NCBI GenBank assembly: GCA_048939765.1
Contig: JBHLPF010000048.1
Coordinates: 1 to 18,911, forward strand
Length of the DNA stretch: 18,911 bases
DNA from: Promethearchaeota archaeon
Lineage (GTDB): Archaea > Asgardarchaeota > Thorarchaeia > Thorarchaeales > Thorarchaeaceae
Reading direction: 5' to 3'
Of the stretch, positions 1 through 18,911 are shown in pieces; position 1 is the stretch's first letter; the number at the start of each line of letters is the position of its first letter. The notes under the pieces were generated by a model. It ran no database searches and had not been told where the DNA came from. It saw only the letters and a list, made by a program, of their open reading frames with translations. A program made the translations under genes and the position numbers.

Positions 1-80
1 AGGAGAGGTAAACATCCGACAAACCCTTTTCTGGAGCCCAAACATGTAGCAACCATCAATACAAGCAGGGAGTATGCAAA

Positions 81-782: not shown

Positions 783-856
783 GCAGGTTTCTTTCCTTCG
801 AAATCGAATCGCGAAGTTTATAGCCTGAGATACGACCCCCCATTTGAGGTTGGAGG

Positions 857-1276: not shown

Positions 1277-1301
1277 GTGTAGCGCTGGTCTCGGCTGTAT
1301 G

Positions 1302-1472: not shown

Positions 1473-1586
1473 GCGCGTTGCTATGACCAATCGAAAATAA
1501 GTGATTTCCACATGAACAACAGTCAGACCACTTTGCTAAAGAGGATTAAAAGCTAAACAGGGCTTGTCCAATTCCAGTACAATGAC

Positions 1587-3512: not shown

Positions 3513-3523
3513 AAAGCCTTGCA

Positions 3524-3784
3524 TTACCAACGTTTTCTAGTTCTGCTTCTTCGCGTTCGACTCCACGCCTTCTTCATATGATGAGCTCGGTGACGCGCCT
3601 GAGATGAAAACACCAGCAGGTTGTCTGAGCGGTTATCGCCTCTAATCTTGTTCTTATGATGAACAACTTCACCTGTACGAAGTCTTCGTCCCATCTTCTT
3701 CTCAGCAGCCCATCTATGTACAAGCCTTCCGGAATCCTTGAAGCGGAGATACCCATTGCTATCTTTGTACGTCTTTCTACTCAT
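3524..3784 (-). CDS. Small HNH endonuclease (HNH_3-like)
   Basis: 86 aa; GY...VHR...EVVHHKNKIRGDNRSDNL...H motif typical of HNH_3 / phage-type HNH nucleases; basic C-terminal tail. Confidence 0.85.
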   Translation of the reverse strand: MSRKTYKDSNGYLRFKDSGRLVHRWAAEKKMGRRLRTGEVVHHKNKIRGDNRSDNLLVFSSQARHRAHHMKKAWSRTRRSRTRKRW

Positions 3785-4024
3785 GTGCTGGAGTCATCTG
3801 GCACACCTAAAAGGTGTTATCAATCTGAGAGTTCGCGGAGAAGGCAGTCAAAATGCTTTAGTAGAGCTATGTCAAAAAGCAATACGGTGGGTTGCTAGCA
3901 GGGATCTGGTATTTTGCTATCAAAGATACCACACCCAACGAAGCCTTGCTGGCTCTCACCACTTGAAGCTAGACATTCTCATCTAGATACCAGTTTATTC
4001 TCTGCCGCCAATTTAAGCCCCCCT

Positions 4025-4426
4025 CTAGTCGGGAGCGCTATCTGCGAGATGCTTCATTGTCGCTAGAACTCGAATCACATCACTGGTACTTACAACGCCG
4101 ATAATCGCATTTCCTTCAATGACAGGAAGACACTTGACGCCTGCCTGATCCATTACAGCTATTGTCTGACCCAGGTCAGCATCTGGACTTATTGTGATTA
4201 CAGGACTTGTCATAACATCCTCGACAGTAAGTGAACTATATGCATCGTCCGAGAGCAGTCGTGCACCGATGATCTCCTTCCTTGTTACCATTCCCGCCAA
4301 GACATCGCCCCTCGTCACAATGAGACTGCCAATGTCCTCAGCTGCCATAAGCTTCGCCGCTTCTTTTACCGGTGTGTCAGCCTCTGACGTGACAATCAGA
4401 GACGTCATGAAGTCTCGGACCTGCAC
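4025..4426 (-). CDS. CBS domain pair protein
   Basis: Two CBS repeats: VRDFMT...IGSLIV...GMVT and VEDVMTSPVITISPD...LPVIE...GVVSTSD. Confidence 0.92.
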   Translation of the reverse strand: MQVRDFMTSLIVTSEADTPVKEAAKLMAAEDIGSLIVTRGDVLAGMVTRKEIIGARLLSDDAYSSLTVEDVMTSPVITISPDADLGQTIAVMDQAGVKCLPVIEGNAIIGVVSTSDVIRVLATMKHLADSAPD

Positions 4427-4460
4427 CTTTGTTCCTCCATTGCAGTACGTGTTTAATGAG

Positions 4461-5060
4461 TTACATCTCCGAGCTTTTCCTCTCCGCTCGGGTCTGTCTT
4501 AAAACGAGCTTGGCTAGCTTGTCAAATACGTCAGTGACAGCCGCTCCCGTCTTTGCGCTCGTTTCATAGTAATCAGCTTGAAACCAGTCACGCAGCATCA
4601 ATCCAGGTTCTACGGGGACAATTCTGCTATCCAATAGGTCGACCTTGTTGGCTGCAATCACTACAGCCGCATTTGGACACGTCTCACGGAATGATTCAAA
4701 CCAGTTGTTCATAGCCATGAATGTTTCGGGACGTGTCACATCGTATGCTATTATGGCCCCTGCTGAACCCTTCATAAACTGTCTACGCAACTCTCGATAA
4801 GTGGTTTGACCCCCCATGTCCCAGACTATCAGCCGTACTTGTCTCGTCTGTCCCTCATCATCAGTCACGCTAACATCCTTAGAAGCAAAGGTGGTTCCAA
4901 TGGTCTGCTTATAGTCGGCGTCAAATGAGTTCTCAGTGAACCTTCTAATTAATGAAGTCTTGCCGACGGCGGCCTCACCCAGGAGAACAACTCGAAACTT
5001 GAACTCATCAGACGAATCGTCTGAGGAGTCTGCTGCTGAGGGTGTCGGACCTTCCGTCAT
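4461..5060 (-). CDS. Rab-like small GTPase (Ras superfamily)
   Basis: G1 GEAAVGKTS, G2 TIGTTF, G3 WDMGGQ, G4 NKVD, G5 ETSAKTG; no C-terminal Cys prenylation motif. Confidence 0.95.
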   Translation of the reverse strand: MTEGPTPSAADSSDDSSDEFKFRVVLLGEAAVGKTSLIRRFTENSFDADYKQTIGTTFASKDVSVTDDEGQTRQVRLIVWDMGGQTTYRELRRQFMKGSAGAIIAYDVTRPETFMAMNNWFESFRETCPNAAVVIAANKVDLLDSRIVPVEPGLMLRDWFQADYYETSAKTGAAVTDVFDKLAKLVLRQTRAERKSSEM

Positions 5061-5120
5061 TCATTGGTGCCCCTTTTCAGGGTGCGCTATGCACCTGATG
5101 CCAGAATCTCCCTGCTACTT

Positions 5121-5137
5121 CTTATATCTTTTCTGCG
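5121..5137 (-). promoter_or_regulatory. Putative BRE/TATA promoter of the GTPase gene
   Basis: Minus strand reads CGCAGAAAAGATATAAG about 60 nt upstream of the GTPase ATG. Confidence 0.4.
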
Positions 5138-5141
5138 GGGG

Positions 5142-5170
5142 GTAGCTAGGGGGTCTTTTGACCCCGCTAC
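5142..5170. terminator. Stem-loop at the pheT 3' end (possible terminator or RNA-stabilising hairpin)
   Basis: GGGGTC-TTTT-GACCCC (5150-5165), extendable by GTAGC/GCTAC (5142-5146/5166-5170), overlapping the pheT stop codon. Confidence 0.45.
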
Positions 5171-6831
5171 CATTTGCCGTCCCTTGGAAGGAATATCTCA
5201 AAGGCCAAGGTGGGCGTACCAAGCTCAAGATTCGCGAGGACTTCCGGAGAGATTTCTCCAAACAGACCAATTGGCTCCCCATCCAGCAGAATGTCTGCAC
5301 ATCTTCCCTCGATAAAGGTCCGATCCTCTCGTCTTCTGTAGGAAAAATGTCCATCCAATCCCAGGTTCCTTAGGAGAAATCCAATGTCGGTTGCCAAGTC
5401 TGTGATGTTGACAGCTGTGTCTGTAACAAGTCCACACACAGATGGGATTTGCTGAATGCGAGTCTCCATCATCTCATCAGGAATTGTAATCTCTCCCACC
5501 TCGAAGATCTTCTGTGGATATTCTGCATGTTGATTTTGAGCGGCAAAGCCAAGAGCAATCGGGAGCAATGAGTTTCTCAGAACTGAATAGTCCCTGCTCT
5601 TGGGATTTCCAGTGACAACCAATGGTCGATCTCTGAGCACTTTGTTATTCAATAGGTCAGGGGAACTCATGATGTAGCTCATAATCTCCTGATATTCCGC
5701 TCCAACCATGAGGTCTCGTACCTTGTTCCTGAGCCCGGTCACTGGTCTTGCTTTGCCAGTAGTCATAGTCTGTGGCATCGCAGGCACTATTCTATCGAAC
5801 CCGTAGCCGATTGCAATGTCTTCAATGATGTCGACAGGGTGCAAAACATCAACTCGATAGCTCGGGATATAGACCTCAAATTGACCGCCTTTTCGGAGTT
5901 TCGCACTGTATCCGGTCCTGCTAAGTGCATCAATGATCTCATCCTTTCCAAGGTCTAGTCCAGTCAATTTGTTGATGTCATCGATGGGTACCACCATGAC
6001 TTCAGGTGAGAAATCTGGGGTTTCATGTATGGTGCCATCAGGATAGACCACGGTGAGGGATTCCACTCTTCCCCCTCTCTCTGCCAGTGAGGCGGTCATG
6101 ATATTAAGCGCCTGATGGATTGTAGGCAAATGTGTGCCAGTCACCTCAACAAAGAGATTGTTTGTTTCAGTAGTTATTCGACCTAGGTGATTACTGTTGA
6201 TGATTGGAGGGAGGCTCAATACCTTTCCCTCAGAATCCTGAAGCAGAGGCCATTTCTTGAAACCTGAGATAATTGAGCCATAGTCAATCCCTTTCTCATG
6301 TTCTGAGATGATGGTTGGACCATCCATCTCTATCTCATAGCCAAGTGGAACGAACCTGATATTTTCTGGCTTTTCAGGGCTATAGATTAGGGGGAATTCC
6401 ATCTCATCAAAAACGTAGAGACCTATGCTGGCTTTCTGTCTGTTTCTGCCATGAGTCGACGTGAGTGCTTCCTGGAGGTGCATATACTCCTTGATTAATT
6501 CGTCACTGGTCTCGACTCCTTTCACAATTGAACACACCAGATAAGGTCGTATCTTTGCGAGACCGGGTTTGACAAGTGCCTGGAGTCCTGATTTCTTCAC
6601 CTTGTAGTCCCGAAGTCCGGAATCAATACGAAGGAATGACCTAACAGCCCTAGCGATTCCTTCTGTTGAAAGCATATCCTGTCTGTCAGGATTTATCTCG
6701 ATCTCAATGATGTTGCCATCGATCTTCTCGACCTCTGCCTTAATTAGAAATAGGGTGTCTTCGAGTTTCTGAAGTGACATCTTCTTCCCGATCAGTGCAA
6801 AGAGGTCATCAATTCTGCTTTCGATTATCAT
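5167..6831 (-). CDS. pheT: Phenylalanine--tRNA ligase beta subunit (archaeal type)
   Basis: 554 aa; NPDRQDMLSTEGIARA, GRNRQKASIG, LSLPPIINS, YRVDVLHPVDIIEDIAIGYGF, LRNSLLP, FGEISPEVL motifs; directly follows pheS. Confidence 0.97.
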   Translation of the reverse strand: MIIESRIDDLFALIGKKMSLQKLEDTLFLIKAEVEKIDGNIIEIEINPDRQDMLSTEGIARAVRSFLRIDSGLRDYKVKKSGLQALVKPGLAKIRPYLVCSIVKGVETSDELIKEYMHLQEALTSTHGRNRQKASIGLYVFDEMEFPLIYSPEKPENIRFVPLGYEIEMDGPTIISEHEKGIDYGSIISGFKKWPLLQDSEGKVLSLPPIINSNHLGRITTETNNLFVEVTGTHLPTIHQALNIMTASLAERGGRVESLTVVYPDGTIHETPDFSPEVMVVPIDDINKLTGLDLGKDEIIDALSRTGYSAKLRKGGQFEVYIPSYRVDVLHPVDIIEDIAIGYGFDRIVPAMPQTMTTGKARPVTGLRNKVRDLMVGAEYQEIMSYIMSSPDLLNNKVLRDRPLVVTGNPKSRDYSVLRNSLLPIALGFAAQNQHAEYPQKIFEVGEITIPDEMMETRIQQIPSVCGLVTDTAVNITDLATDIGFLLRNLGLDGHFSYRRREDRTFIEGRCADILLDGEPIGLFGEISPEVLANLELGTPTLAFEIFLPRDGKW

Positions 6832-8349
6832 CTAAATCACCTCCCGAATGAAGCTTGCCTTTCTTAGCCAAGTCAGATCTTTTGAGAACAGATCTCTGAT
6901 ATCATCGATTCCCATGGCTGCCATATAGAGACGCCCTGAGCCTATTCCCCATGCTAGGACCGTATCCTTAATCCCCAACGGATAGGTCACCTCGGGTCTG
7001 AAGATTCCCGATCCACCTAGCTCTATCCAGCCAAGTTTATCATGCTTGCCAAAGGTTTCGACACTTGGCTCTGTAAATGGGAACTGACCTGGTTTGAACT
7101 TCAGCTTCTCAATACCCACTGCATTGCAAATAGACTTCAGATATCCCAGAAGGTCTCTCAGTGTGAGACCTTTATCCATGATTATTCCCTCACACTGATT
7201 GAACTCCTGTGCGTGCGTGGCACTCAGCGTCTCTGACCTGAAGTTGCGATCTATTATGAACATCTTCTGAGGGCTCTCTCGATGTTCCCAGAGATATCTC
7301 ATCGAAACCGGTGTCGTGTGAGGACGCAGGCAGAGCCTTGTTGAAATCTCCCTGCTGAAGGGCCAGTCCCATCCCTTTGATCCTGTGTTTCCTCCATTCT
7401 CATGCACTGCCTTTACGGCACGATAGTATTTCGCGTCTCTGATATCTCCGTGATCAAATGGAAACTCAATCCTGAACTGGTCCTGGACTTCACGTGCAAC
7501 ATGATCCTGAGGGACGAACAAGGTATCGTGCGCCCAGAACTCGGTTTCGACAAAAGGGCCATCCCATTCTGTGAAACCCAGTCCAATCATTATCTCTCTC
7601 AACCAATCATTGAACTCAACATATGGATGCTTCTTGCCATAATATTCGTAGGCAGGTTCCAACTCCACGTTGAATGGTCTGAAATCTTTGCCTTCCCAGG
7701 ACCTGGTGGTCAGCATTTCAGGTGTCAAATCCACAATGCCACTGACTTCTTCCTTGAGCAGATGCTCCGCTGCCGCTCGCATTTCTTCGGCGACCCTCGC
7801 CAGAAACATCTTCGATGTTTTGGCTGTGATAAGCGATCTTTCCAAAGCAATCTTCAAGGATGATTCATACCTTCGAGGGAATCTGTGCTCTCCTCTCAGA
7901 ATCTTCGAAAGGATGCTATCAATTGGAGTTTCAATGCTTCCAGCACTTGCAGAAAGAATCGTAGTTCCATTCTCCTTTGATATTGCGAGCCAACCATTCT
8001 TTCTTGTCCAGCTGAGAGCAATGCCTTTGGATTCCTCCGATATCCCACTATTATATACAGCCTCATCCAATTTGGCGCGTCCACCAAGCTTTGCGACAGC
8101 ACGAAAGAGCCTGACCTCCGGAAGACCATTCTCTGCATAGTCAAGCCCCTCATCCGTGAGATAATATGATGCAATTTCTTCTGTATTGAGTTCGATTAGC
8201 CCCTTTTGTGAGAGAGAGTTGAAAATCGAAACAACGCGTTCTTCATTTTCGCCAAGTCTTTTGGCGATGATTTTCGATGTTGTTCTCTCACTGCTGTCGA
8301 CCAATTGCTCAAGGACTGCTCTCTCTCCTTTTGTCAGCTGCTCGGTCAT
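6832..8349 (-). CDS. pheS: Phenylalanine--tRNA ligase alpha subunit (archaeal long form with N-terminal winged-helix domains)
   Basis: 505 aa; GLPE, GKKHP, LFVPQDHVAREVQD, LRPHTT, FRSE..SATHAQEFNQCEG, FPFTEPS, GSGIFRPEV, AWGIG motifs. Confidence 0.97.
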   Translation of the reverse strand: MTEQLTKGERAVLEQLVDSSERTTSKIIAKRLGENEERVVSIFNSLSQKGLIELNTEEIASYYLTDEGLDYAENGLPEVRLFRAVAKLGGRAKLDEAVYNSGISEESKGIALSWTRKNGWLAISKENGTTILSASAGSIETPIDSILSKILRGEHRFPRRYESSLKIALERSLITAKTSKMFLARVAEEMRAAAEHLLKEEVSGIVDLTPEMLTTRSWEGKDFRPFNVELEPAYEYYGKKHPYVEFNDWLREIMIGLGFTEWDGPFVETEFWAHDTLFVPQDHVAREVQDQFRIEFPFDHGDIRDAKYYRAVKAVHENGGNTGSKGWDWPFSREISTRLCLRPHTTPVSMRYLWEHRESPQKMFIIDRNFRSETLSATHAQEFNQCEGIIMDKGLTLRDLLGYLKSICNAVGIEKLKFKPGQFPFTEPSVETFGKHDKLGWIELGGSGIFRPEVTYPLGIKDTVLAWGIGSGRLYMAAMGIDDIRDLFSKDLTWLRKASFIREVI

Positions 8350-8513
8350 ATGTCTATCAAATCTCCTGAGATTGTATCGTGATGCTTGGAATGAGCCGCC
8401 TCATACAAACTGAGGTCGCAGAAAAAACAATCCATTGCTATAATGATGTAAATTGGCGGTACATCCCTTCTTCACCTATCTACTGCAGGTTCAGTCCTGT
8501 CTACCTTTTTAAC
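8346..8513 (-). promoter_or_regulatory. pheS promoter and long 5' leader with uORFs and hairpins
   Basis: TTAAAAAG TATA-like box at ~8505-8512 (minus); uORF1 MYRQFTSL* (8464-8438) behind AGGTGA; uORF2 MDCFFCDL...IDI* (8435-8346) whose TGA overlaps the pheS ATG; several short inverted repeats. Confidence 0.4.
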
Positions 8514-8589
8514 TTGTCGCCATTCAGTGGGAATGTCTGCTACGTAATGTTAAAATACGGACTTACACGCGATGACCATGGCGGTTGCC

Positions 8590-8621
8590 TGACGGCCACT
8601 AGTTCTTATAGAAATCCGTCA
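8590..8621 (+). promoter_or_regulatory. Putative aRF1 promoter: TATA-like TTATAGAA bracketed by inverted repeat TGACGG...CCGTCA
   Basis: TGACGG 8590-8595 and CCGTCA 8616-8621; SD GAGGTGA just before the ATG at 8651. Confidence 0.4.
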
Positions 8622-8650
8622 AATCAGATAAGAATAAGAGGTGAAACAGA

Positions 8651-9730
8651 ATGTCTGCCGAGCGTCAGAAGCTCAAGAGAAAGGTTCAACAGCTCAAAGC
8701 ACTCAAGGGTAGACATAGTTCTTTCACCACACTCTACATACCACCGACCAAGAGCCTGGTCGATGTCACTGGATTTGTAAAGACGGAGCTGGCAGGTGCT
8801 GACAATATCAAGAGCAAAGCGAATAGGAAGAACGTGCAAGACAATCTCACCGCGATCCTAAGCGAGCTCAATCTGGTCACTGCATTGCCAGAGAATGGCA
8901 TGGCGTTCTTCTTTGGCATCCTTGAGGAGGGTGGAACAACCCAAGAGATTCGGGAGATTGTCATCCCTCCCTCACCAATCTCACAGTTCACATACATCTG
9001 CGGTCGAGAGTTTATAACGAATGAGCTTGAAGAAATGACCCTACCCAAGAGTCTGGTCGTCATCACTCTGATTGAGGGGGGAAAAGTCACCATCGGATAC
9101 CTACGCGGCAAGCATATGGAGCTCGTCCGTGATGAGGACTTCTACATCATCGGAAAGACTCGTGCTGGCGGTCAGAGTGCCAAGCGATATCTGAGAATTC
9201 GAGAGGAGAAGATGCTAGAATTCTTCCGACATGTAGGCAGGATGCTGAAAGACCTACTGTTGGATGATATCGACAACGTAGATGCGATTGTGCTTGGAGG
9301 CAACACAATAAGGTGTCAGGAATTCCTGGAGAAAGGTGACTTAGATTATCGAATTCGAGAGAAGATTGCAGAAACCATAATTCCAGTTAGCGTCATAGAT
9401 GAAACAGGACTATACCAAGCCATGAAAGAGGCATCTAGGGTTCTCAAAGAAACCGAGATCTATGCAGAACGTCAGATATGGGATGGATTCATGGAATCCC
9501 TCATGAAGGGTGAGAATAATGTTGCGTATGGCGAAAAGGAAGTTTTGGACGCTCTCAGAGCCGGTCGTGCAGAAACCATAATGGTCACTGAGGATAAAAC
9601 TGCCCTCATAGACTCTCTATATGATGAGATTGATGAATACGGCTCCGATTTGATGATATTCTCTGCTCAGACAGAATCAGGTGCACAACTGAAATCGTTT
9701 GGAGGCGTTGCTGCGCAGCTTCGATGGTAG
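8651..9730 (+). CDS. prf1: Peptide chain release factor aRF1/eRF1 family protein
   Basis: 359 aa; NIKS motif (ADNIKS), YxCxxxF (YICGREF), GGQS (RAGGQSAKRY), YGEKEV and C-terminal FGGVAAQLRW. Confidence 0.93.
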   Translation: MSAERQKLKRKVQQLKALKGRHSSFTTLYIPPTKSLVDVTGFVKTELAGADNIKSKANRKNVQDNLTAILSELNLVTALPENGMAFFFGILEEGGTTQEIREIVIPPSPISQFTYICGREFITNELEEMTLPKSLVVITLIEGGKVTIGYLRGKHMELVRDEDFYIIGKTRAGGQSAKRYLRIREEKMLEFFRHVGRMLKDLLLDDIDNVDAIVLGGNTIRCQEFLEKGDLDYRIREKIAETIIPVSVIDETGLYQAMKEASRVLKETEIYAERQIWDGFMESLMKGENNVAYGEKEVLDALRAGRAETIMVTEDKTALIDSLYDEIDEYGSDLMIFSAQTESGAQLKSFGGVAAQLRW

Positions 9731-9733
9731 TTA

Positions 9734-10162
9734 TCAGTCCTTTGGAATGCGTGGCATCTCACGAAGCATATCTATATCCTCAGCCCAAGCTACAAGCTCT
9801 TTGCCCATATTCTCCAAATATTGAAGGAGAATGACCTGATATTTGTGCAGATGGTGTTGCTCCAGTTTTTTCTGCTTCTCGACATAATCTCTCACTCTTC
9901 TGGGAAGTCCTGCACTCCAACGCCTGACAGCCATCTCGGCTTTCCGATCGCTAAGAACTCTCTTGGCTGTCCTTGACCTCCGCTTCATAACCAGAATCTG
10001 TTCGAGAGTCTTCTGAACCGCAATTGTGGCCGCGACAAGCTCCTTTGCATCCGCCTTTAGGCTCTCATTTCGTGTTGTGTAATATATCTCCTTGATATGT
10101 CGTTTAGCTTTGATAACGTAGTTTAGGAGTTCTATCATCTCTTGCATGCTTTTAGACTCCAC
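9734..10162 (-). CDS. Hypothetical all-helical basic protein, last gene of the split-Cas4 cluster
   Basis: 142-aa ORF (GTG start, alternative ATG at 10147) 23 nt downstream of the Cas4-like gene; amphipathic helical pattern. Confidence 0.75.
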   Translation of the reverse strand: MESKSMQEMIELLNYVIKAKRHIKEIYYTTRNESLKADAKELVAATIAVQKTLEQILVMKRRSRTAKRVLSDRKAEMAVRRWSAGLPRRVRDYVEKQKKLEQHHLHKYQVILLQYLENMGKELVAWAEDIDMLREMPRIPKD

Positions 10163-10185
10163 ATCAAGAGAGATTACTCTTTTGC

Positions 10186-10851
10186 CTACGCAGCTGAGTG
10201 ACTACAGACATCATTTCTTCCATACGGACAGCCTCTGCACTTCCCTGCGCTGGGACTGGCCTCCGGTTTTCTCCCCTGATACCAGACCTCATCTAGTTTT
10301 GCCAAGGCTTTCAATACACGTTTTTGATTGAATCTTCTGCTATATACCGTTCCATCTCCACAAGACATGCAATCAACTTGGTTATTTCCAATACAATTCC
10401 TCGCAGTCCTCTGCAAGCAATAGACGAGAACTAGCTTGGCGGTGGCGCATGAAACACCAGTTTCCATCAAGGCAAGGGCATATAGCTCTGCCTGGAAAAA
10501 GTCTTCTTTCCTAGCTCTATCCGGAATATATCTTGTGGGAAACTTGCGTTCTATAATAGCATCAAGTACTGGTGCATCTTCCCAGTGGAGGATTGCATTG
10601 TCAAACCTTCCATTGAACCTGTGTCCCATCGAATGGACTGATTGTTCACTGAATAGAAAGGAGCTTTCAGATCCCGGCTTGTTTCTCAATTTGATGAATT
10701 CCTGAAGAGTCCATCTACTTGGTTGCGCCCTCCTAATTCGCCTTCCAGTTGAATGTAGGATTCCTCCAGAGTTCATATAGATTATTGCGAAAACGCCTCC
10801 AATGAATATGGCTAGTAGAATGCCATTCGTGAACGGATCCAATTGCATCAT
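10186..10851 (-). CDS. Cas4-like PD-(D/E)xK (RecB-family) nuclease, C-terminal catalytic part, with an N-terminal transmembrane helix
   Basis: TM segment GILLAIFIGGVFAIIYM; GRFD...IIERK and QAELY RecB motifs; C-terminal CRGCPY-x5-C Fe-S ligand triad; start ATG overlaps the upstream stop (ATGA at 10851-10848). Confidence 0.8.
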   Translation of the reverse strand: MMQLDPFTNGILLAIFIGGVFAIIYMNSGGILHSTGRRIRRAQPSRWTLQEFIKLRNKPGSESSFLFSEQSVHSMGHRFNGRFDNAILHWEDAPVLDAIIERKFPTRYIPDRARKEDFFQAELYALALMETGVSCATAKLVLVYCLQRTARNCIGNNQVDCMSCGDGTVYSRRFNQKRVLKALAKLDEVWYQGRKPEASPSAGKCRGCPYGRNDVCSHSAA

Positions 10852-11102
10852 CCTGCCACCCATAGAATAGCAGCTACTATTGTTGCAAACAAAATTATTG
10901 CTCTAATCAAGCGACTGAATGAACGGATGGGCTGGGGATTCAATCCCACTTCGCGATGAAGCCGTTCGCCATCTCTACTGGCCTCAGAGGGTTTCTCTCG
11001 GCGCGAATTTTGAAGGTAGAATCGATGTTCACAGAGATATTGAATTCGTAATTCAGACACATCTCGATATCGTCCCAATGCGCCTCTCCTTGAATCTCTC
11101 AT
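10848..11102 (-). CDS. N-terminal Cas4-like fragment (first Fe-S Cys and G-x3-H helix) with a C-terminal transmembrane helix
   Basis: DVSELRIQYLCEHRFYL...SEASRDGERLH matches the Cas4 N-terminal S-(D/E)-x-Y-x-C...Y and G-x3-H pattern; ends in hydrophobic LIRAIILFATIVAAILWVAG; probable ATG at 11102 (ORF is open to 11180). Confidence 0.7.
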   Translation of the reverse strand: MRDSRRGALGRYRDVSELRIQYLCEHRFYLQNSRREKPSEASRDGERLHREVGLNPQPIRSFSRLIRAIILFATIVAAILWVAG

Positions 11103-11294
11103 CCTACATCTAGTGATTGGTGACCTATGAGCCCTCAAAAGGGGCACAGTTTTCGAATTTGAGCGGATGAGGAAATGCACACAGGTCTGAGAAGTGTTTT
11201 AGCTCTACATCGCAATCATAGGAGCTTTACTTATATTCGTGTGACGTAAATCCTAGGATGTTAGACTTCACCAGCGGAGTCTGGGGAAACTTGA

Positions 11295-11726
11295 ATGGGT
11301 GATATGATGTCTGAAGACTACGATGGAGCTACGGCTGGCAGGGTTCTCGTTTTTGATGCCAACGAGACTGTAAGGTTTCCAGCACAATTCAAAGACGCCA
11401 TGGGGACCAATAACGGATTGATGGTGCTAGTGCACAAGGACCGTCTCATCAAGATTTTCCCGCTCGAAGACAAAGAGGTAAGCTTTCTGTCGGTCGAGAT
11501 TAAGAAACTTACAAATGACTTCCTAACACAACTCTCGCAGGTCTTCAAGTCAGCAGGCCTGGTCGATTTGCTATTTTCAACCGGTGTCTGCCTTCGTGGC
11601 ACAAGATGTTTCTATGAGTGTTATTTCAATCCTGGACAGCTTACCAACACCTTAGATGATCTGAGAAACGAACTTGCTGCATTAGAGGGCGTTAGCTATG
11701 TCCACATAGAAAACGTGCATTCATGA
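11295..11726 (+). CDS. Probable AbrB-like plus ACT-like domain protein (putative regulator)
   Basis: N-terminal VLVFDANETVRFPAQFKDAMG resembles the AbrB/SpoVT swapped-hairpin pattern; C-terminal beta-alpha-beta-beta-alpha-beta pattern ending LRNELAALEGVSYVHIE is ACT-like; true start may be 11304 or 11307 after GGTGA. Confidence 0.55.
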   Translation: MGDMMSEDYDGATAGRVLVFDANETVRFPAQFKDAMGTNNGLMVLVHKDRLIKIFPLEDKEVSFLSVEIKKLTNDFLTQLSQVFKSAGLVDLLFSTGVCLRGTRCFYECYFNPGQLTNTLDDLRNELAALEGVSYVHIENVHS

Positions 11727-11752
11727 TTGAATCGGTGAGTTGCTGAGGGGAC

Positions 11753-12388
11753 ATGCAAGACATAGTCATAGACCTGATACTTCAGGGCTATCTAGGTCTA
11801 TTCGTGGTCTGCCTCGCTATCAACTTGATACCGTTTATTAGCCCCAGTAATATGGTGCTGGCGGCCGTCGCCTATCTCGTCATGTTTCCCGGAGATCGAA
11901 TCCTTTCCGAGGCTATTATAATCGCAGCTCAGATTGGGATTGTAGTCGCTCTTGCCGCAACAGTATCAAAGGTCATCCTGTATTATGCGATGCGTGGTTC
12001 ACGTGTTGTTTTGTCAGAAAATATGCTTGCGAAAATAGACTTGGAGCGGAAGAGAGTAGAGAAGTGGGGGGCTATTGCTTTGTTTCTATCAGCAGGCTCT
12101 CCAGTGCCTGACGACCCGATCGTTATCTACTGCGGTCTTACTGAATACAGCGTTCCAAAATTCTTTGCTAGCTATTACATCGGGAAGGTGGCAGTCACTA
12201 TTCCAGGTGCGCTCATTGCATCAGCAGTAAGTTCGCTTTTTGGTTCAATGCCTAGCATTGTTGGTTCCATTGCATTAACTGCCATTATTCTTGGAATCAT
12301 CTTCAAACGCAGGTCTGATGAAGATGGCATCAATAAAGAAACCGTCAGTCCTCGTGAAGAAAAGGGAGAGCAGAATTGGCATGGGTAG
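11753..12388 (+). CDS. DedA/VTT (SNARE-associated Golgi protein) family membrane protein
   Basis: Multiple hydrophobic segments; IPFISP, ALAATVSKVILYY, SPVPDDPIVIYCG, FFASYYIGK motifs typical of DedA/VTT. Confidence 0.82.
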   Translation: MQDIVIDLILQGYLGLFVVCLAINLIPFISPSNMVLAAVAYLVMFPGDRILSEAIIIAAQIGIVVALAATVSKVILYYAMRGSRVVLSENMLAKIDLERKRVEKWGAIALFLSAGSPVPDDPIVIYCGLTEYSVPKFFASYYIGKVAVTIPGALIASAVSSLFGSMPSIVGSIALTAIILGIIFKRRSDEDGINKETVSPREEKGEQNWHG

Positions 12389-12437
12389 GAACTCTTAAGA
12401 GCTTCACGACGATGTAATGCATCGCTTTGGTGATAAG

Positions 12438-12833
12438 ATGGCAGGAAGAAGTACTGCAGAAATCAAATGTGTGAAATGTAAGAATGTATACGAATTCGAC
12501 GTCATTGATCACATTGACCTTTCCCAAGACCGCGACCTTCTGAAGAACCTAAAGGCTGGAAAGGCAAACCGAGTTCAATGTCCCAAGTGCAAGAAGGTTC
12601 AGTATCTGGATCGGAGTATAGTCATCAATTTTGAGCCGGAGAATCTCATTGTTGTCTATGATACTGCAGCCAAGAAGAAGGAAGTCCGCGAAGAACATGA
12701 GCGAGACTATCAGACTGTGATTGGATTCAACGAGATTCTAGAAGAGGTAGGAGAGGAAACTGAATTCAAGGTCATCTCTACAATTGATCAGCTAAAGGAA
12801 CTCGTGGTTGAATACATGAAATCTCATGAGTAG
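12438..12833 (+). CDS. CpXC-like zinc-ribbon domain protein
   Basis: CVKC...CPKC pair with the CpXC spacing (IDLSQDRDLLKNLKAGKANRVQCPKC); ATG at 12438 preceded by GGTGA. Confidence 0.78.
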   Translation: MAGRSTAEIKCVKCKNVYEFDVIDHIDLSQDRDLLKNLKAGKANRVQCPKCKKVQYLDRSIVINFEPENLIVVYDTAAKKKEVREEHERDYQTVIGFNEILEEVGEETEFKVISTIDQLKELVVEYMKSHE

Positions 12834-12841
12834 GCTGATGA

Positions 12842-13909
12842 CTAGAGTTTTCTCTTTCCAAGTAGGAACTCTTCCACCCATCTCTCAGCTCTGTACATGG
12901 TAGTTGGAGTGGGAGGCATCTTGAATCCATAGGCTGAGATTGACTCCAGTGCTCCACCAGTCTCTCTCTTGAGGGCTAGTTTTGCACCCCGGATTGCATC
13001 CATAAGGATAGGTCCTGCATTTGGACCGTCAGTGACTTCCATTCTGATATCAATCTTAATCGGTGCACCTCCAAACTGGCGGCCGTGTACATAGAAGTAT
13101 GACTCCCTGCTGTTGTCCATGAATGGAACAAAATCTGAAGAGCCAGCTACAAGGGGCGCGTCATAAGGTAGGTCCTGACTGATCGCGCTGCTCTTCACCC
13201 CTCGCTTCCTCATACGCCCACGGTAATGCGAATCGAGTGACTCAGCTCCTCCGCCCACATCTAGCTGATAGCTTTTATCGACGCGTACTCCACGAGCCAC
13301 GAGGAGCTGCAGCAAGTTCCTATGAAGCACCGTTGAGCCAAGCTGGTCTTGGAGATCGTCTCCTATCAAAGGCAATCCTTTCTCTTCGAATTTATTGCTC
13401 CATTCCTGGTCAGAGGCAATTGGTATTGGAGCGCCGTTGATGAATGCACACCCAGCTTCCAGACTGGCGCCAGCATAGAATTTTGTTGCCTCTTCGGCAG
13501 ATCCTGGCAGTAAGTTGATGACGACCTCTGCATCTGAGTCGCGAAGTATCTTGACAACATCTGAGTCGGATTCACTGGAAACCTTGATCAATGCCCGAAG
13601 CATATCATCTACTCCATCATGAATCGGACCCTTCTCTACTTTCACGCCCATCTTGGGAACATCTGCAAATCGAATCACATTGTTGGGCTCTGCAAAGATT
13701 GCATCTGATAAGTCTGCACCGACTTTTCCCTCCGCAACATCGAACGCTGCTACAAACCTGATATCTCTTACGTGAAATCCGGCGAAATCTGGATGGCTGA
13801 GACCCACCAAGTCGTCGCTAGCTTTCGCACCCCTATAGTATTCTACTCCTTGGATCAGAGCGCTCGCGCAGTTGCCTACACCAACTATTGCTACATTTAT
13901 CCCATTCAT
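12842..13909 (-). CDS. ino1: myo-Inositol-1-phosphate synthase (archaeal/actinobacterial short type)
   Basis: VAIVGVGNCASALIQG Rossmann motif, AAFDV..GKVG.DLSDAI, GDDLQDQLG, SYQLDVGG, DGPNAG, ISAYGFKMPP; GAGGTG SD before the ATG at 13909. Confidence 0.92.
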   Translation of the reverse strand: MNGINVAIVGVGNCASALIQGVEYYRGAKASDDLVGLSHPDFAGFHVRDIRFVAAFDVAEGKVGADLSDAIFAEPNNVIRFADVPKMGVKVEKGPIHDGVDDMLRALIKVSSESDSDVVKILRDSDAEVVINLLPGSAEEATKFYAGASLEAGCAFINGAPIPIASDQEWSNKFEEKGLPLIGDDLQDQLGSTVLHRNLLQLLVARGVRVDKSYQLDVGGGAESLDSHYRGRMRKRGVKSSAISQDLPYDAPLVAGSSDFVPFMDNSRESYFYVHGRQFGGAPIKIDIRMEVTDGPNAGPILMDAIRGAKLALKRETGGALESISAYGFKMPPTPTTMYRAERWVEEFLLGKRKL

Positions 13910-13945
13910 GCTATACACCTCTGACTACGAAGATAGGCTCGGGAC

Positions 13946-13977
13946 CGCACTCCCATAGTGCGCTTTTAAAGTTTTAT
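13946..13977 (-). promoter_or_regulatory. ino1 promoter (TTTAAAAG) with adjacent palindromic operator CGCACT-N5-AGTGCG
   Basis: Perfect 6-bp inverted repeat at 13946-13962, directly downstream (minus strand) of the TATA-like box at ~13963-13970. Confidence 0.5.
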
Positions 13978-14071
13978 GACCATATAATAGTGCATTAATG
14001 AGACGTATGAGACCTCGGGGTTGTTTCGTCGAGAAGAAATGCTTATGTTGTTAGGAAGCATATTCTAATCT

Positions 14072-14297
14072 GGACGACTGGCTGAAGCCTGTTGCTCCTC
14101 ACACATGCAGAAGAGTGTGTGACCGGATTCAGCGTCTTTCCGAATGTCCTCCTGTAGGGAGATTCGGCTCTCACCCAGTGTTCAGAGAACGGCGTTGTAT
14201 CACGTGGTTTGGAGCACCACTTACTCACGTTCAAATTGAGAGGGTGGACCTCAAATGCCCAAGATGGGCACCAAGTCTTTGGCTCCGGCCAGCGTCC
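14072..14297. ncRNA. Candidate structured non-coding RNA of unknown family (~226 nt)
   Basis: Ends pair over ~16 bp (GGACGACTGGCTGAAGCC / GGCTCCGGCCAGCGTCC) and enclose at least four hairpins; lies in a 420-bp gap with no convincing ORF. Confidence 0.5.
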
Positions 14298-14339
14298 CCC
14301 TCTTCTCTAAGTAATTGCTTCTTAAGGCATGTCTTGTTC

Positions 14340-15500
14340 TCACAAGTGCTCTGCCAGCAACTCAACAATGTCAGCGACGCCGATAGAACTCCCTAATTGC
14401 CTCGCTCCGGCATCCAGATTGCTAAAACAGAAGGGACATGCAGAAACAATGAGGCTAGCTCCTGTTTCGATTGCTTGCCTAACCCTATCTGACGCTATTC
14501 GTTTGGAGAGGTCCGCGTCGTAAGAACGCACACCTCCTCCTGCGCCACAGCATAGTGCAGCTTCTCTCTTGGTTTCCATCTCCGCTAACTCTATCCCCGG
14601 AATGGCAGAGAGAACCTCCCGTGGCGCATCATAAACTTTGAATTCTCTGCCTAGATGACAGGGATCATGGTAAGTGGCTATCCTTTTCCGTCCGGGTCCA
14701 CGAAAGTCTAAATCTCCATTTCTTATGAGTTCAGCCGCATACTCCACAATGTGTATCACCTGAGGAAGCTCAATACCGAAGCGCTCGGGAAAATCTGACT
14801 TCAGCGTTTTTAGGCATCCAGGGCAAGATACAACGATACGCTCAGCTCTTGCCACTTCAAATGCTTTCTTGATTCGTTCAGCATTCTCCTTAGCTGCCTC
14901 GACTTTGCCGGTCCTAATCATGATAGACCCACAGCATGGTTCTTCCTCAAGCACCCCGAAATCTTCTGCAGCTGCATTCAATATCTTCACAGTTGATATG
15001 GCGATGTTTGGTAGTTTCATCCCTGCAGTACATCCTGTGTAGTAGATTGTGGATGCCTTGGCTGGGACATCAAATCCAACCTCCCCTACCCAGTTTCTCC
15101 TGATGCTGTTGTTATCCTCATAGGGATTCAGATGTTTCAGAATCTGTTCTGTGATGGCATCCCTTGATTCATTTGGTGCATCACTTAGAACCTGACGGAC
15201 TTGCTCGAGAGTCTGGGTAGGGTCGAATTCAGCTGCACAGATCTCTGTGCAATTCCCACATAGCATGCACGTGAAGATCGACTCGACATTTTCCGCATTC
15301 TTCTCCAGCCTTCCATCGAGGAGCGCTTGTGCAACTTGGATTCTTCCTCGCATGAAGCTGGTTTCGAAACCACTTGAGTTCCTCCAGACTGGACATACGC
15401 CATCGAAGCCCATAGATTCCAAGACGGCATTTCGACAGATGCCACACCTTCTGCACTGAGCCAAGTTCTCAAGGAGGTCATCTATGTCTACTCCGGCCAA
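14340..15500 (-). CDS. Fe-S oxidoreductase, GlcF/HdrD-like (two 4Fe-4S motifs plus two CCG domains)
   Basis: CRRCGIC...CP and CMLCGNCTEIC; YTGC...CCGS...SCPGC and YHDPCH...CCGAGGG...ACPFC. Confidence 0.92.
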   Translation of the reverse strand: MAGVDIDDLLENLAQCRRCGICRNAVLESMGFDGVCPVWRNSSGFETSFMRGRIQVAQALLDGRLEKNAENVESIFTCMLCGNCTEICAAEFDPTQTLEQVRQVLSDAPNESRDAITEQILKHLNPYEDNNSIRRNWVGEVGFDVPAKASTIYYTGCTAGMKLPNIAISTVKILNAAAEDFGVLEEEPCCGSIMIRTGKVEAAKENAERIKKAFEVARAERIVVSCPGCLKTLKSDFPERFGIELPQVIHIVEYAAELIRNGDLDFRGPGRKRIATYHDPCHLGREFKVYDAPREVLSAIPGIELAEMETKREAALCCGAGGGVRSYDADLSKRIASDRVRQAIETGASLIVSACPFCFSNLDAGARQLGSSIGVADIVELLAEHL

Positions 15501-15503
15501 CTA

Positions 15504-16910
15504 TCAAATACCTCCTAAAACACCCGGATTCATTATCCCCTTGGGATCGAGCGATGCTTTCAGAGACTTCACAAGTTCAAGGTACCTGTCCATCTCCTCA
15601 ACGCCATCACTCCAATAGGGTGCTAGCTTGAAAGGAACTGCACCAGCCTTGAATAGGCGGCGAGCTAGCTCTCCATGTGCTTCACGCGCCCTCTGCGCTT
15701 CATCCTTATCTTGTGGATCATAGAATATCTGTGGATAGAAATTGTAGCTAGCATGTCCCGATTGGAAACCTGCAGTGTGACCTAGAATGTTATATTCCTC
15801 CATTACGGACCAGAATTCTTCGAGAGTCCTGTGCCAATTTGATGGGGTTTGGTGGTGATACAATATTCGCCAATGCCACCTATGAACATAGGAAGCTCGA
15901 ACCAGAATCCTCATTCTATTCTTCCACTCACCTTCTGGCAATTCCTTGATGCCGATTTCATAGCCACCAGTGCTTTCGCATAGCTTCTTTGTCATCTCAA
16001 TATCGCTTTGGAGTTGGTCCTTTCGTAATGATCCAAGAACAAGAGAAACTGTGTATTTTGGCCAATCATATTTGGGAACTCCAAATTCCTCTCCTATCAT
16101 TTCGAGGAATAAATCGAGAATGTGACCTTCATAGATGACTGCCCAGAGAGAGCTAACATCATTTTGCTTTAGCTCAATTAGGAACTTCTCAGCTTGGCCT
16201 GCATCTTCAAAGCCAAAAGTATTGTAGTCGAACTGATGCATCCGCTTGTGGGTCTTGAGGGATACTTTCGTGATGATGCCAAAACTGCCTAAGGAACCAA
16301 TAAAGAGCCCAGTAAGGTCTGGACCAAACGAATATCGCAGGAAAGGTCCTGGTGCATTTGGATTAGCCTCAGATCCAGTCTGAATGATGCGGCCATCCGG
16401 TAGCACCACCTCCAGTCCTAGGACAAATTCTGCAATGCATCCGAATTTCGAAGATCCAAATCCCGCTCCGTTTACAGCAACATTCCCTGCGACTGTCGCT
16501 GAAAGTGATGAGCCAGGGTAGAATGGAACCCACAGGTCGTCCGGCTTGAGAAAACTGTCAAGCATGCCGTATGTGACACCCGCTCCAACGGTTACAGAGC
16601 GAAGTTCTTTGTACAGAATAATATTGTTCAATCGCATCATTTCTATGACAAGTCCGCCTTCTTTGGGAATAACTTCTCCTTGAAGGCTAGAACCGCCTGA
16701 TCTCGGTATGACTGGGATTTGATTCTTGTCTGCAATCCTCATGATTTGCGCGACTTCATCGGTATTTCCAGGACGGACCACAGCTCCTGGCATCACAGGG
16801 TCATAACTAGTTGATGCTGAAACAGCATATGCCGTGAGAACATCTGTTCTTGTTGATACATACTCCTTCCCTACAATCTTCTCCAATGCAATGATAACCT
16901 TAGGATCCAT
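15504..16910 (-). CDS. FAD-binding oxidoreductase, GlcD/D-lactate dehydrogenase-like (VAO/PCMH family)
   Basis: PGAVVRP, PRSGGSSLQG, VGAGVT, ATVAGNVAVNGAG, VLGLEVVLPDG, DLTGLFIGSLGSFGIITK, LDPKGIMNPG; GGAGGTGA SD. Confidence 0.92.
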   Translation of the reverse strand: MDPKVIIALEKIVGKEYVSTRTDVLTAYAVSASTSYDPVMPGAVVRPGNTDEVAQIMRIADKNQIPVIPRSGGSSLQGEVIPKEGGLVIEMMRLNNIILYKELRSVTVGAGVTYGMLDSFLKPDDLWVPFYPGSSLSATVAGNVAVNGAGFGSSKFGCIAEFVLGLEVVLPDGRIIQTGSEANPNAPGPFLRYSFGPDLTGLFIGSLGSFGIITKVSLKTHKRMHQFDYNTFGFEDAGQAEKFLIELKQNDVSSLWAVIYEGHILDLFLEMIGEEFGVPKYDWPKYTVSLVLGSLRKDQLQSDIEMTKKLCESTGGYEIGIKELPEGEWKNRMRILVRASYVHRWHWRILYHHQTPSNWHRTLEEFWSVMEEYNILGHTAGFQSGHASYNFYPQIFYDPQDKDEAQRAREAHGELARRLFKAGAVPFKLAPYWSDGVEEMDRYLELVKSLKASLDPKGIMNPGVLGGI

Positions 16911-17004
16911 TTCATCACCTCCGCGTACCTGAGCGAATCATAAAATGCATAGAATCATCATCAAGTCGCTCGCAGATTCTTTTGCCGCTTTTAATAGATG
17001 CTGC

Positions 17005-17655
17005 TCACTTTCTGACATCATTAACAATATCAAGAAACTTCTTGACATTTTCAGTGATGACCTCATAGCGGCCATCCTTTATTGCCTTCTTATCAGTAAT
17101 GGCGCTACCTACACCTAACGCAAAAGCCCCTGCCTCCAGCAACGGACGTGCCGTTTCTAAATTGACGCCCCCTGTGGGTACTAGCCGAATCTGTGGAAGA
17201 GGTGCTCTCACAGCTTTGATGTAGTTGGCTCCTCCTAGATTCCCACAAGGAAACACCTTGACAGCATCCGACCCGAGGTTATGCGCGTCCAGTATCTCAG
17301 TAGGTGTGAGTGCGCCAGGAATGCATGGCTTGGAATGCTTCTTTGTAGCATCAATAAGCTCCTTTGAGTATCCTGGACTGACGATGAATTCGCTGCCTGC
17401 GGCAACTGCTTCATCCACCATCCTTCCATTCAGAACAGTTCCTGTACCGACTAGCACTTTGTCACCTAGTCGCTCTGTAAGCTTTCGCACAACGTCTGTT
17501 GCTCCGGGCACGCTAAAAGTAACTTCTATGATTCTCACACCACCCTCAATCAATGCATCAGCCACTTTCATCGCGGTATCAGATGAATCGACCCGAATTA
17601 TGGGTATCAGTCCTGTTTGATGAATCAGGTCAAGTGCTTTTTTCTTATTCCACAT
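17005..17655 (-). CDS. eda: KDPG/KHG aldolase (2-dehydro-3-deoxy-phosphogluconate / 4-hydroxy-2-oxoglutarate aldolase), bacterial Eda type
   Basis: [33 protein letters not shown], Schiff-base AVKVFP, PTGGV, GVGS motifs; probable start MWNKK at 17655, 10 nt after the kinase stop. Confidence 0.92.
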
Positions 17656-17665
17656 GGTTCCCAAC

Positions 17666-18661
17666 CTACCTGTCAATCCTAAGACCACGATCGCGCCCCT
17701 TGATGAGTTTCTCAACCTCTGACTTGTAAACGAACGCTAGGTCTCCCGGCATTGAGTGTTTCAGGGCTGAGAAGGCAGCACCGAAATCAACAGCCTTCTG
17801 TAGGTCCTCTAGTATAAGATAGCCATATATGAAACCAGCACTGCACGCATCACCCCCGCCAAGTCGGTCGATGACCTCGACATCATATACCGGGCTTTTG
17901 TAGACCTTTCCATTGGAATATGCGAACACCGACCATCTGTTTGTAAGAACAGTGGGAGTTTCTCGAAGCGTGATTACAACCACTTCAAATCCAAACTTGT
18001 CAGTCAGTTTCTTAGCCACTTCTTCATAGTCGCTACCCTCAATACCATAGACCACCTTTGTGTCCTCTTCTGTGGTAATCAATATGTCAAAGTATTCTGA
18101 GGCTGGCTCCGTAAACTCTCTTGCCTCTTCAGGTGTCCAAAGCTTACCTCGATAGTTCACATCGTAGGAAACCTTGCAGCCCTTCTCTTTCGCTACCTTC
18201 AAAACTTCCATTGTGACGTCTGCACATGAGGCACTCAATGCAGGAGTAATGCCGCTGGTGTGGAATAGCTTTGTGCCATCGAGTATTTCAATCCATGGCA
18301 CTTCTCCGGGCATGATTTTACTTATGGCAGACTCTTTCCTATCATAGATGACCCGATTGGTCCTTGGTGCCGCTCCAAATTCAACGAAGTAGACGCCACA
18401 GCGACTATCAGGGTCCCAAAGAATATGGGATGTATCAACACCATGCTCTCTGGCTTTGTTCCGGATGAAATGACCAATGGAGTTGTCACCAAGCTTCGTT
18501 ACATAGGCTGAATTGAGTTCAAGACGTGCACATGCCACCGCTACATTCATCTCGGCGCCTCCTGCATGCGCGTTGAAGCTGTGAGTCTGCTCAAACCTCA
18601 TGAAGTTGGGAGGTGAGAGTCGGAGCATGACCTCTCCAAAAGTGACTACATCGTATCCCAT
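17666..18661 (-). CDS. kdgK: 2-keto-3-deoxygluconate kinase (PfkB family)
   Basis: VVTFGEVMLRLSP, GGAEMNVA, YFVEFGA.PR..VIYDR, HTSGITPALS, DVNYRGKLW, DRLGGGDACSAG, SALKHSMPGD motifs characteristic of KdgK. Confidence 0.9.
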   Translation of the reverse strand: MGYDVVTFGEVMLRLSPPNFMRFEQTHSFNAHAGGAEMNVAVACARLELNSAYVTKLGDNSIGHFIRNKAREHGVDTSHILWDPDSRCGVYFVEFGAAPRTNRVIYDRKESAISKIMPGEVPWIEILDGTKLFHTSGITPALSASCADVTMEVLKVAKEKGCKVSYDVNYRGKLWTPEEAREFTEPASEYFDILITTEEDTKVVYGIEGSDYEEVAKKLTDKFGFEVVVITLRETPTVLTNRWSVFAYSNGKVYKSPVYDVEVIDRLGGGDACSAGFIYGYLILEDLQKAVDFGAAFSALKHSMPGDLAFVYKSEVEKLIKGRDRGLRIDR

Positions 18662-18740
18662 TAAATCACTCTCTTTGGTCGATTAAACAAGATGGGAAAG
18701 AATGGCCCGAGAGTTAAATCTGCCGAAGATAACTAGGTGC

Positions 18741-18911
18741 CTATGTGCTAGGATTAAACTCTGTGCGCGCGATTACTTCATCTTGGACGAACGGATCAAG
18801 CTCAATGAAATATGCGCTATAGCCTGCAACACGTACAATGAGGTCCCTATGTTGGAGTGGGTTCACTTTCGCATCCTCCAATGTTTCTCTGTCCACGACA
18901 TTGAACTGCAC
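18741..18911 (-). CDS. Glycyl radical enzyme (PFL/PflD family), C-terminal 56 aa; gene begins beyond the window
   Basis: Manual translation: [56 protein letters not shown]; contains the QFNVV and RVAGYSAYF glycyl-radical loop; absent from the supplied ORF track. Confidence 0.93.

Follow-up and report, generated by a model that had tools for sequence, protein, structure and literature searches.

The window analysed here is a stretch of 18,911 nucleotides (nt) from a Promethearchaeota archaeon of the family Thorarchaeaceae (GenBank assembly GCA_048939765.1, contig JBHLPF010000048.1, positions 1 to 18,911 of the forward strand). On its minus strand lie two small open reading frames (ORFs), here called gene A and gene B, which probably encode two subunits of a single DNA nuclease. 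The stop codon of A and the start codon of B overlap in a shared ATGA, and the sequence GGGTGG is found 5-10 nt 5' of the ATG of B. Gene A carries DVSELRIQYLCEHRFYL followed by G45-x3-H49 and a hydrophobic helix at its C-terminal end, and gene B begins with a hydrophobic helix and continues with the motifs G81-R-F-D84, E101-R-K103, Q120-x3-Y124 and C205-R-G-C208-x7-C216 (Table 1). A first-pass annotation of the window had described a pair of minus-strand genes with an ATGA overlap and a Shine-Dalgarno-like GGTGG for gene B, in which A combines Cas4-type N-terminal motifs and G-x3-H with a C-terminal transmembrane helix and B combines an N-terminal transmembrane helix with GRFD, ExK, QxxxY and three C-terminal cysteines. 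All of these elements are present in the sequence and its translations.

Genes A and B and their conservation

A profile search with A returned 86 small relatives of 55-103 amino acids (aa), all of them unnamed and from Thorarchaeota-type archaea. Both the lengths of its homologues (82-89 aa) and a stop codon directly upstream in one relative support position 11102 as the start of A. The database relatives of B number 67 at 90% clustering, are labelled Thorarchaeota and are nearly all 200-230 aa long. Every database entry for the two proteins is named 'hypothetical protein', so annotation stands to gain from their characterization. Residues R13, L18, R19, Q21, C24, E25, R27, G45, L48, H49 and W81 are invariant in the alignment of A, as are E69, S74, G81, R82, D84, E101, Q120, Y124, C205, C208 and C216 in 33 sequences of B, in which K103 is conserved in at least 90%. 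Gene A has a ratio of nonsynonymous to synonymous substitution rates (dN/dS) of 0.25-0.40 and gene B one of 0.08-0.17, and since these values are well below 1, both genes are under purifying selection. Relatives, invariant motifs and selection together go well beyond what chance would produce.

The two-gene split is real and conserved and is not an assembly error. We compared 33 loci, three of which were fetched by exact protein and 30 of which were taken from 400 scanned Asgard genomes. In 32 of the 33 loci, B has a separate A-like ORF directly upstream, and the two never share a frame. This layout is kept across B identities of 36-100% and in independent assemblies, closed chromosomes included. 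No fusion of about 305 aa occurs among the 67 database relatives of B, and the few longer database 'B' proteins are N-terminal extensions in the frame of B across gene A. The first-pass judgement that a sequencing frameshift was unlikely is borne out by these comparisons.

Structure prediction with AlphaFold2 (AF2) of A alone gave helices at residues 15-33, 40-53 and 64-83, the last with a predicted local distance difference test score (pLDDT) of 78-95, and the predicted template modelling score of 0.28 made this model unsuitable for fold searching. The AF2 model of B has a mean pLDDT of 82.7. It places an additional set of cysteines (C145, C153, C161 and C164), unmentioned in the first-pass annotation, between two core strands. 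These residues may bind zinc or hold another cluster, and no second metal centre like it is present in Cas4 and EXO5 structures. The unsplit metagenomic relatives P0091, P0105, P0107 and P0093 have a comparable Cys4 insert (CxxC...C...C) at the same place, which indicates that the Cys4 set is older than the split.

Table 1. Positions in the window of genes A and B and of their predicted functional elements
Feature	Coordinates	Strand	Description and basis
Gene A	10848..11102	-	84 aa; putative small subunit with N-terminal nuclease module and C-terminal membrane helix of the tail-anchor type
Gene B	10186..10851	-	221 aa plus stop; putative large subunit with N-terminal membrane helix and PD-(D/E)XK nuclease core
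A/B stop/start overlap ATGA	10848..10851	-	Predicted translational coupling; overlap or 5-nt-later start in related loci
A residues 13-49, two-helix module with C24 and G45-x3-H49	10956..11066	-	Invariant columns, profile match, AF2 helices
A residues 65-83, predicted C-terminal transmembrane helix with one-residue tail	10854..10910	-	Kyte-Doolittle mean 2.53 over 19 residues
B residues 7-25, predicted N-terminal transmembrane helix	10777..10833	-	Kyte-Doolittle 2.08; AF2 helix 6-28; acidic N-terminus predicted outside, K/R-rich stretch inside
G81-R-F-D84, RecB-type motif II with predicted metal-binding Asp	10600..10611	-	Aligned to G..D of single-chain relatives, and theirs to EXO5 GVID(182)
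E101-R-K103, motif III (ExK)	10543..10551	-	Aligned to ElK of single-chain relatives, and theirs to EXO5 E196/K198
Q120-A-E-L-Y124, QxxxY motif	10480..10494	-	Aligned to QAxLY of single-chain relatives and to EXO5 FQVSLY
C205-x2-C208-x7-C216, three predicted C-terminal Fe-S ligands	10204..10239	-	Aligned to KCxxCxYxxxC of single-chain relatives, EXO5 KCRTCTYADIC and the end of TIGR00372 cas4
C145-x7-C153-x7-C161-x2-C164, extra Cys set	10360..10419	-	Candidate second metal site; four Cys invariant in 33 sequences

Homology and fold of the two halves

The iron-sulfur (Fe-S) nucleases of the PD-(D/E)XK type, which include Cas4, EXO5, AddB and Dna2, are known as soluble single chains or domains in which the cluster ties together the two ends of the fold. 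In AddB, AdnAB and Dna2, this Fe-S 'staple' is held by one N-terminal and three C-terminal cysteines. An exhaustive profile search with the B alignment returned 21 close clusters; next, and well separated from these, came single-chain proteins of 236-270 aa from Heimdallarchaeota, Thermoprotei and other groups. These single-chain relatives are annotated as PD-(D/E)XK nuclease or Cas4 and match the Pfam models Exo5 (PF09810, up to 2.5e-9) and PDDEXK_1, and three of the ten scanned also match Cas_Cas4.

Profile-profile comparison aligned the two halves with different parts of the single-chain relatives. With hhalign, A matched positions 28-68, which hold the N-terminal YCE cysteine and GxxxH (96%, E 3.4e-9), a result that bears out the Cas4-type N-terminal similarity that the first-pass annotation had proposed to check. 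B matched positions 100-248, which hold G..D, ExK, QxxxY and KCxxC...C (99.5%, E 3.9e-22). The profile of the single-chain relatives in turn matched human EXO5 over N-terminal and C-terminal parts (E 1.7e-16) and matched Cas4 SSO0001 far more weakly (E 0.0025). Within the EXO5 match, the stretch equivalent to the A module aligned to ...QNWCE... and ...GASIH of the human protein. Searches of the PDB with single sequences and with the A profile returned only noise.

The predicted fold of B points to the same superfamily. The best matches of the B model in Foldseek and VIA-align were Cas4, EXO5, MGME1 and the AdnAB nuclease, and Dna2 was also found. VIA-align superimposed the model on residues 54-191 of Cas4 in the Cas4-Cas1 structure 7MI4 (Z 10.8, root-mean-square deviation 3.6 A over 132 residues) and gave a Z of about 8 for EXO5, and Foldseek matched the model to 8D3L with an E value of 6e-5. 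Among the PADLOC models, Cas4 positions 50-115 matched B residues 58-144, and the Cas4 models reached an E value of 8e-7, a score to be read without a curated cut-off. Since the B model covers Cas4 residues 54-191, B has the Cas4 fold minus its first ~50 residues, and A, judged by its profile match, is homologous to the segment that B lacks. The first-pass label 'Cas4-like' calls for a correction: Cas4 is the best structural match for B, but the nearest characterized family is EXO5 (PF09810).

In EXO5, the [4Fe-4S] region connects the N- and C-terminal cysteines, with single-stranded DNA entering beside it, and D182 and E196 are active-site residues (PMC8710748). Alignment by way of the single-chain relatives suggests that D84 and E101 of B correspond to D182 and E196 of EXO5, and that C24 of A corresponds to the N-terminal cluster ligand, which makes it by homology the predicted first Fe-S ligand. 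The EXO5-type RecB motifs are intact in B. The EXO5-type arrangement of one plus three cysteines is likewise present and invariant, but it is divided between two chains, with C24 in A and C205, C208 and C216 in B as predicted cluster-binding residues. EXO5 is a single soluble polypeptide, whereas A and B are separate genes and each product has a helix with a Kyte-Doolittle value of at least 2.08. The activity typical of EXO5 is that of a 5'-3' exonuclease on single-stranded DNA with a requirement for a free end.

A probable two-subunit nuclease at the membrane and its alternatives

We consider it likely that A and B are two subunits of one EXO5/Cas4-type PD-(D/E)XK DNA nuclease located on the cytoplasmic face of the membrane. 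The two proteins would be made together from one transcript by translational coupling. A would contribute the first Fe-S cysteine (C24) and the conserved histidine of GxxxH (H49) and would be held in the membrane by its C-terminal helix. B would contribute the metal-binding and catalytic residues D84, E101, K103, Q120 and Y124, the C-terminal cysteines C205, C208 and C216, and the additional four-Cys metal site. The helices of A and B, occupying the place of the tight membrane hairpin of a single chain, would pair in the membrane and unite the halves, whereupon an inter-chain [4Fe-4S] cluster would be bound and the DNA channel closed. Physical assembly, the inter-chain cluster and nuclease activity are all predicted here from homology, and activity may, as the first-pass annotation proposed, be gated by assembly, since the enzyme would arise only where A and B come together at the inner membrane face. 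A role for such an enzyme can be suggested only with low confidence, and it may be to trim or destroy DNA ends at the membrane, either those of entering foreign DNA or those of membrane-attached replication or repair intermediates.

Gene A is disrupted at a few loci. In two related species of genus g16, IS607/TnpB-type insertions interrupt it, near codon 35 in one and near codon 67 in the other, so two separate insertions of related elements have occurred in one 250-nt gene. The inserts carry an IS607-type serine recombinase (MerR-resolvase TnpA) and/or a 723-aa TnpB (Cas12f1-like TNB domain), and the N-terminal piece of A is 8 kb away or on another contig (L050, G395:C355, 225-8611; L051, G394:C145, 172-999). 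The 8-kb insert in G395 also carries a 1788-aa ORF without a Pfam match. In a third species, an in-frame TAA is found in A between the Cys motif and GxxxH (G322:C94:2295-2522; L023 1133-1396), and this codon could reflect a nonsense mutation, an error in the assembly or a site of read-through. Where A is disrupted, B is intact with all of its motifs and has a dN/dS of 0.2-0.3, like its neighbours, which shows that B can persist for a while after A has lost its integrity. The disruptions of A may be recent or polymorphic events.

The disrupted loci weigh against a two-subunit enzyme, and so do several other observations. Neither A nor B matches any Pfam model at E values up to 1, PF01930 included, and the match of B to TIGR00372 cas4 is confined to B residues 176-216 and scores 17.5 bits against a cut-off of 65. 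The B profile matches the EXO5 sequence with an E value of only 0.026. Since direct matches are weak or absent, the family assignment rests on the profile-profile links and the fold. The neighbouring genes give no clue to function. Moreover, Cys mutants of the Solo-Cas4 of M. mazei lost the cluster and kept nuclease activity (PMC12501428), and an inter-chain cluster may therefore be dispensable for catalysis. By analogy with Solo-Cas4, the cluster of the A/B pair may serve structure or regulation rather than chemistry.

Some of these observations are what would be expected if B, alone or as a homo-oligomer, served as a nuclease anchored in the membrane, with A as a small membrane protein in an accessory or regulatory role and not a structural part of the fold. 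B keeps its motifs under selection in the two species with an insertion-cut A, and Cas4 mutants without the cluster can retain activity. We nevertheless regard this explanation as unlikely, given that the homology of A covers precisely the part of the fold missing from B, with the fourth cysteine and the conserved histidine. The four-residue core of the A motif is invariant, and A and B are gained and lost jointly.

Another possibility, which goes beyond the assembly of A and B into one enzyme, is that the enzyme opens and closes. The arch that closes the channel (the Fe-S region and the segment equivalent to the crossover helix of EXO5) would consist of two chains held together only in the membrane, and the enzyme could therefore open and close around DNA. 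This would allow it to load onto DNA without a free end, or to be switched on only where the halves meet. We think that the odds are against such a mechanism. If it were true, Thorarchaeota would possess a membrane-gated nuclease whose substrate is DNA that crosses the membrane or is attached to it, as in the entry of foreign DNA, DNA uptake or chromosome anchoring.

The placement of the nuclease at the membrane is predicted from the two helices. All 19 aligned A proteins have a 19-residue C-terminal segment with a mean Kyte-Doolittle hydropathy of 2.1-3.2 and a tail of 0-2 residues, and together with a hydropathy peak at residues 65-83 of 84 and a polar N-terminus these features are those of a tail-anchored protein. 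The 33 aligned B proteins all have an N-terminal segment with Kyte-Doolittle values of 2.08-3.19, which is preceded by 0-7 mostly acidic residues in 30 of them and by 9-15 residues in three N-terminally extended rows. Lysine and arginine residues number 0-1 before the B helix (3 in one row with a 15-residue extension) and 1-5 in the 15 residues that follow it. The positive-inside rule then predicts A to be N-in/C-out and B to be N-out/C-in, and both soluble parts would thus be cytoplasmic, as an Fe-S enzyme requires. A predicted topology with the two halves on opposite sides of the membrane would have contradicted the first-pass annotation, and hydropathy and flanking charges instead place both on the same side.

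It could be argued that the helices are a greasy zipper for heterodimerization and that the enzyme is soluble. The helices stand exactly at the break, where mere gluing of the halves is possible (a fused A-B protein would have a tight two-helix hairpin there), and the membrane spans are predictions from hydropathy and flanking charges. This explanation strikes us as rather improbable. The mean hydropathy is 2.1-3.2 over 19 residues in 52 of 52 sequences, the outer tails are short in A and in 30 of the 33 B rows, and lysine and arginine are enriched on the side of the soluble domain, a combined pattern that is characteristic of true membrane spans.

The remaining alternatives concern the split itself. 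The overlapping frames and tight spacing might suggest that one fused protein is produced by programmed ribosomal frameshifting at the A/B junction. Such a mechanism is highly improbable because the frame of B relative to A differs among loci, being +1 in about half of them and +2 in the others, and because the junction varies between the stop/start overlap and a B start 5 nt after the stop of A (a 4-nt spacer). Moreover, a start codon of its own is present for B at every locus, no more than a few nt from the stop of A, and a conserved slippery site is absent. The occurrence of both relative frames and of two junction types effectively excludes programmed frameshifting and assembly frameshift alike and fits translational coupling. 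The different frames with their 4-nt overlap and the existence of unsplit relatives of about 250 aa in other archaea might also point to a frameshift introduced by assembly or sequencing, or to a single-chain nuclease gene decaying into a pseudogene. This reading is barely credible, having already been refuted by the comparative data on layout, frames, junctions, selection and protein length.

Distribution, genomic context and relation to known systems

Within the scan of 400 Asgard genomes, B was found in 69 of the 85 genomes of one family (f1) and in none of the 315 others, and no match to the A or B profile lay outside that family. The suggestion in the first-pass annotation that split transmembrane Cas4 pairs may exist in other prokaryotes finds no support here, as the pair is limited to a single Asgard family. 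Neither gene is present in genera g15 and g3 or in the sister family f2 (93-99% complete). At the g15 and g3 loci, a 141-146-aa gene abuts the gene that lies downstream of B in the window (gene C, described below); the spacers measure 98 and 170 bp, and nothing of A or B is left there. In f2, gene C has the eRF1-like gene as its neighbour, and hydrogenase genes are found upstream. Since A and B are present or absent together, they constitute one cassette that is gained or lost as a unit.

A profile of the single-chain relatives detects only the B part in the A/B-bearing family, and unsplit forms are sporadic in other Asgard families. In one of these, f13 (genus g39), an unsplit relative of 312-323 aa occurs in 11 of 12 genomes (e.g., G087:C1:41946-42806), and its N-terminal/core part and C-terminal Cys part match as two separate stretches, which indicates a large insert between them. 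When trees are rooted on canonical Cas4, all 35 B sequences included group in one clade with an SH-aLRT (Shimodaira-Hasegawa-like approximate likelihood ratio test) support of 100, or 99 on core columns only, and they show no second, independent origin of the two-gene layout. A long stem (1.4-2.1 changes per site) leads to this clade, which falls among the unsplit relatives, and the trees favour no particular sister group.

The first-pass annotation also held that the pair has no CRISPR context, and this agrees with the absence of cas genes from the window and of Cas1 and Cas4 Pfam matches from the genome to which it belongs (88.5% complete). The only other PDDEXK_1 match in this genome is a 243-aa Cys-free protein unrelated to A-B (G000:C55:23438-24169; L044 1108-1839). 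A separate gene for canonical Cas4 is found in 19 of the family's 86 genomes, often in ones that also have A/B, and in none of the 16 from the genus of the genome analysed here.

The synteny comparison that had been proposed for the Asgard loci revealed a conserved neighbourhood of a housekeeping nature around the adjacent A and B genes, in the order PheRS alpha and beta, an eRF1/Pelota-like gene, gene C, B and A. Divergent from A are a 143-aa gene and genes for a VTT/DedA membrane protein, a CpXC protein and an inositol-phosphate synthase. We rejected a defence-island context, since the neighbours are housekeeping genes and the only PADLOC matches are the Cas4 models on B.

The range of the first-pass annotation, 9734-11102, also takes in gene C (9734-10162, minus strand, 142 aa), a co-oriented gene that it did not mention. 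Gene C begins 23 nt 3' of B with no T-run between them and is probably co-transcribed with B. No family could be assigned to it apart from a weak match to DUF7341 (E 0.023). Gene C occurs in 75 of 85 genomes of the A/B-bearing family and also in the sister family, including genera without A and B, and it is always tail to tail with the eRF1-like gene. Gene C therefore offers no functional clue, and we rejected it as a third component of the system.

The eRF1-like gene itself (8651-9730, plus strand) encodes a 359-aa protein with eRF1 domains 1-3 that also matches acVLRF1 and lies beside PheRS and gene C across the family. Its length is below that of a typical aRF1, so that it could be Pelota-like. 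The 143-aa protein on the other side (11295-11726, plus strand) is very conserved, contains the motif ...LLFSTGVCLRGTRCFYECYF..., and is divergent from gene A in all loci; it belongs to no Pfam family and has only a weak match to PRK08577. Farther away, the window encodes a 641-aa leucine-rich-repeat protein (1587-3512, plus strand) and a 199-aa Ras/Roc-type small GTPase (4461-5060, minus strand), both of kinds counted among the eukaryote-like proteins of Asgard archaea.

We found no description of a split or membrane-anchored member of the Cas4/EXO5 superfamily in the openly accessible literature, and the words 'transmembrane' and 'split' are absent from a phylogenomic study of Cas4 (PMC5704561). 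The A/B pair is a lineage-confined version of a well-known enzyme for which we found no published description, and its standing as a variant of a known enzyme limits its importance. It would nonetheless be a rare case of an enzyme that processes DNA ends while tethered to the membrane, in archaea near the eukaryotic stem and in a family that includes the eukaryotic EXO5.

Among known systems, EXO5 (PF09810; PDB 7LW7-7LWA) and the single-chain relatives have the same order of motifs as the pair, namely the YCE cysteine, GxxxH, G..D, ExK, QxxxY and KCxxCx(5-7)C. The A/B pair differs from EXO5 in that the domain comes from two genes with a membrane helix at each cut end, between GxxxH and the core, and in that B has an extra invariant Cys4 set. 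Cas4 (PF01930, TIGR00372, COG1468; SSO0001 4IC1, 7MI4, type I-C 8D3L) shares with A/B the one plus three cysteines and the RecB motifs. It is one soluble chain, however, and A/B fall below its family cut-offs and are without a cas1/cas2 partner. Solo-Cas4 genes lie outside CRISPR loci and are mainly inherited vertically within a lineage (PMC5704561), and A/B resemble them in lying outside CRISPR loci, in a conserved housekeeping neighbourhood, and in vertical inheritance within a lineage, forming one clade in one taxonomic family. The nuclease domains of AddB/AdnAB, Dna2 and MGME1 share their core fold with B (Z 5-9), but they either belong, as domains, to large soluble machines that combine helicase and nuclease or are mitochondrial enzymes, and none is known to be split at this position or membrane-anchored. 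Compared with all of these, the A/B pair is a natural case in which the Fe-S tie would have to form between two polypeptides, at the membrane, and it thus provides a ready-made system for asking what purpose the cluster and the closed DNA channel serve.

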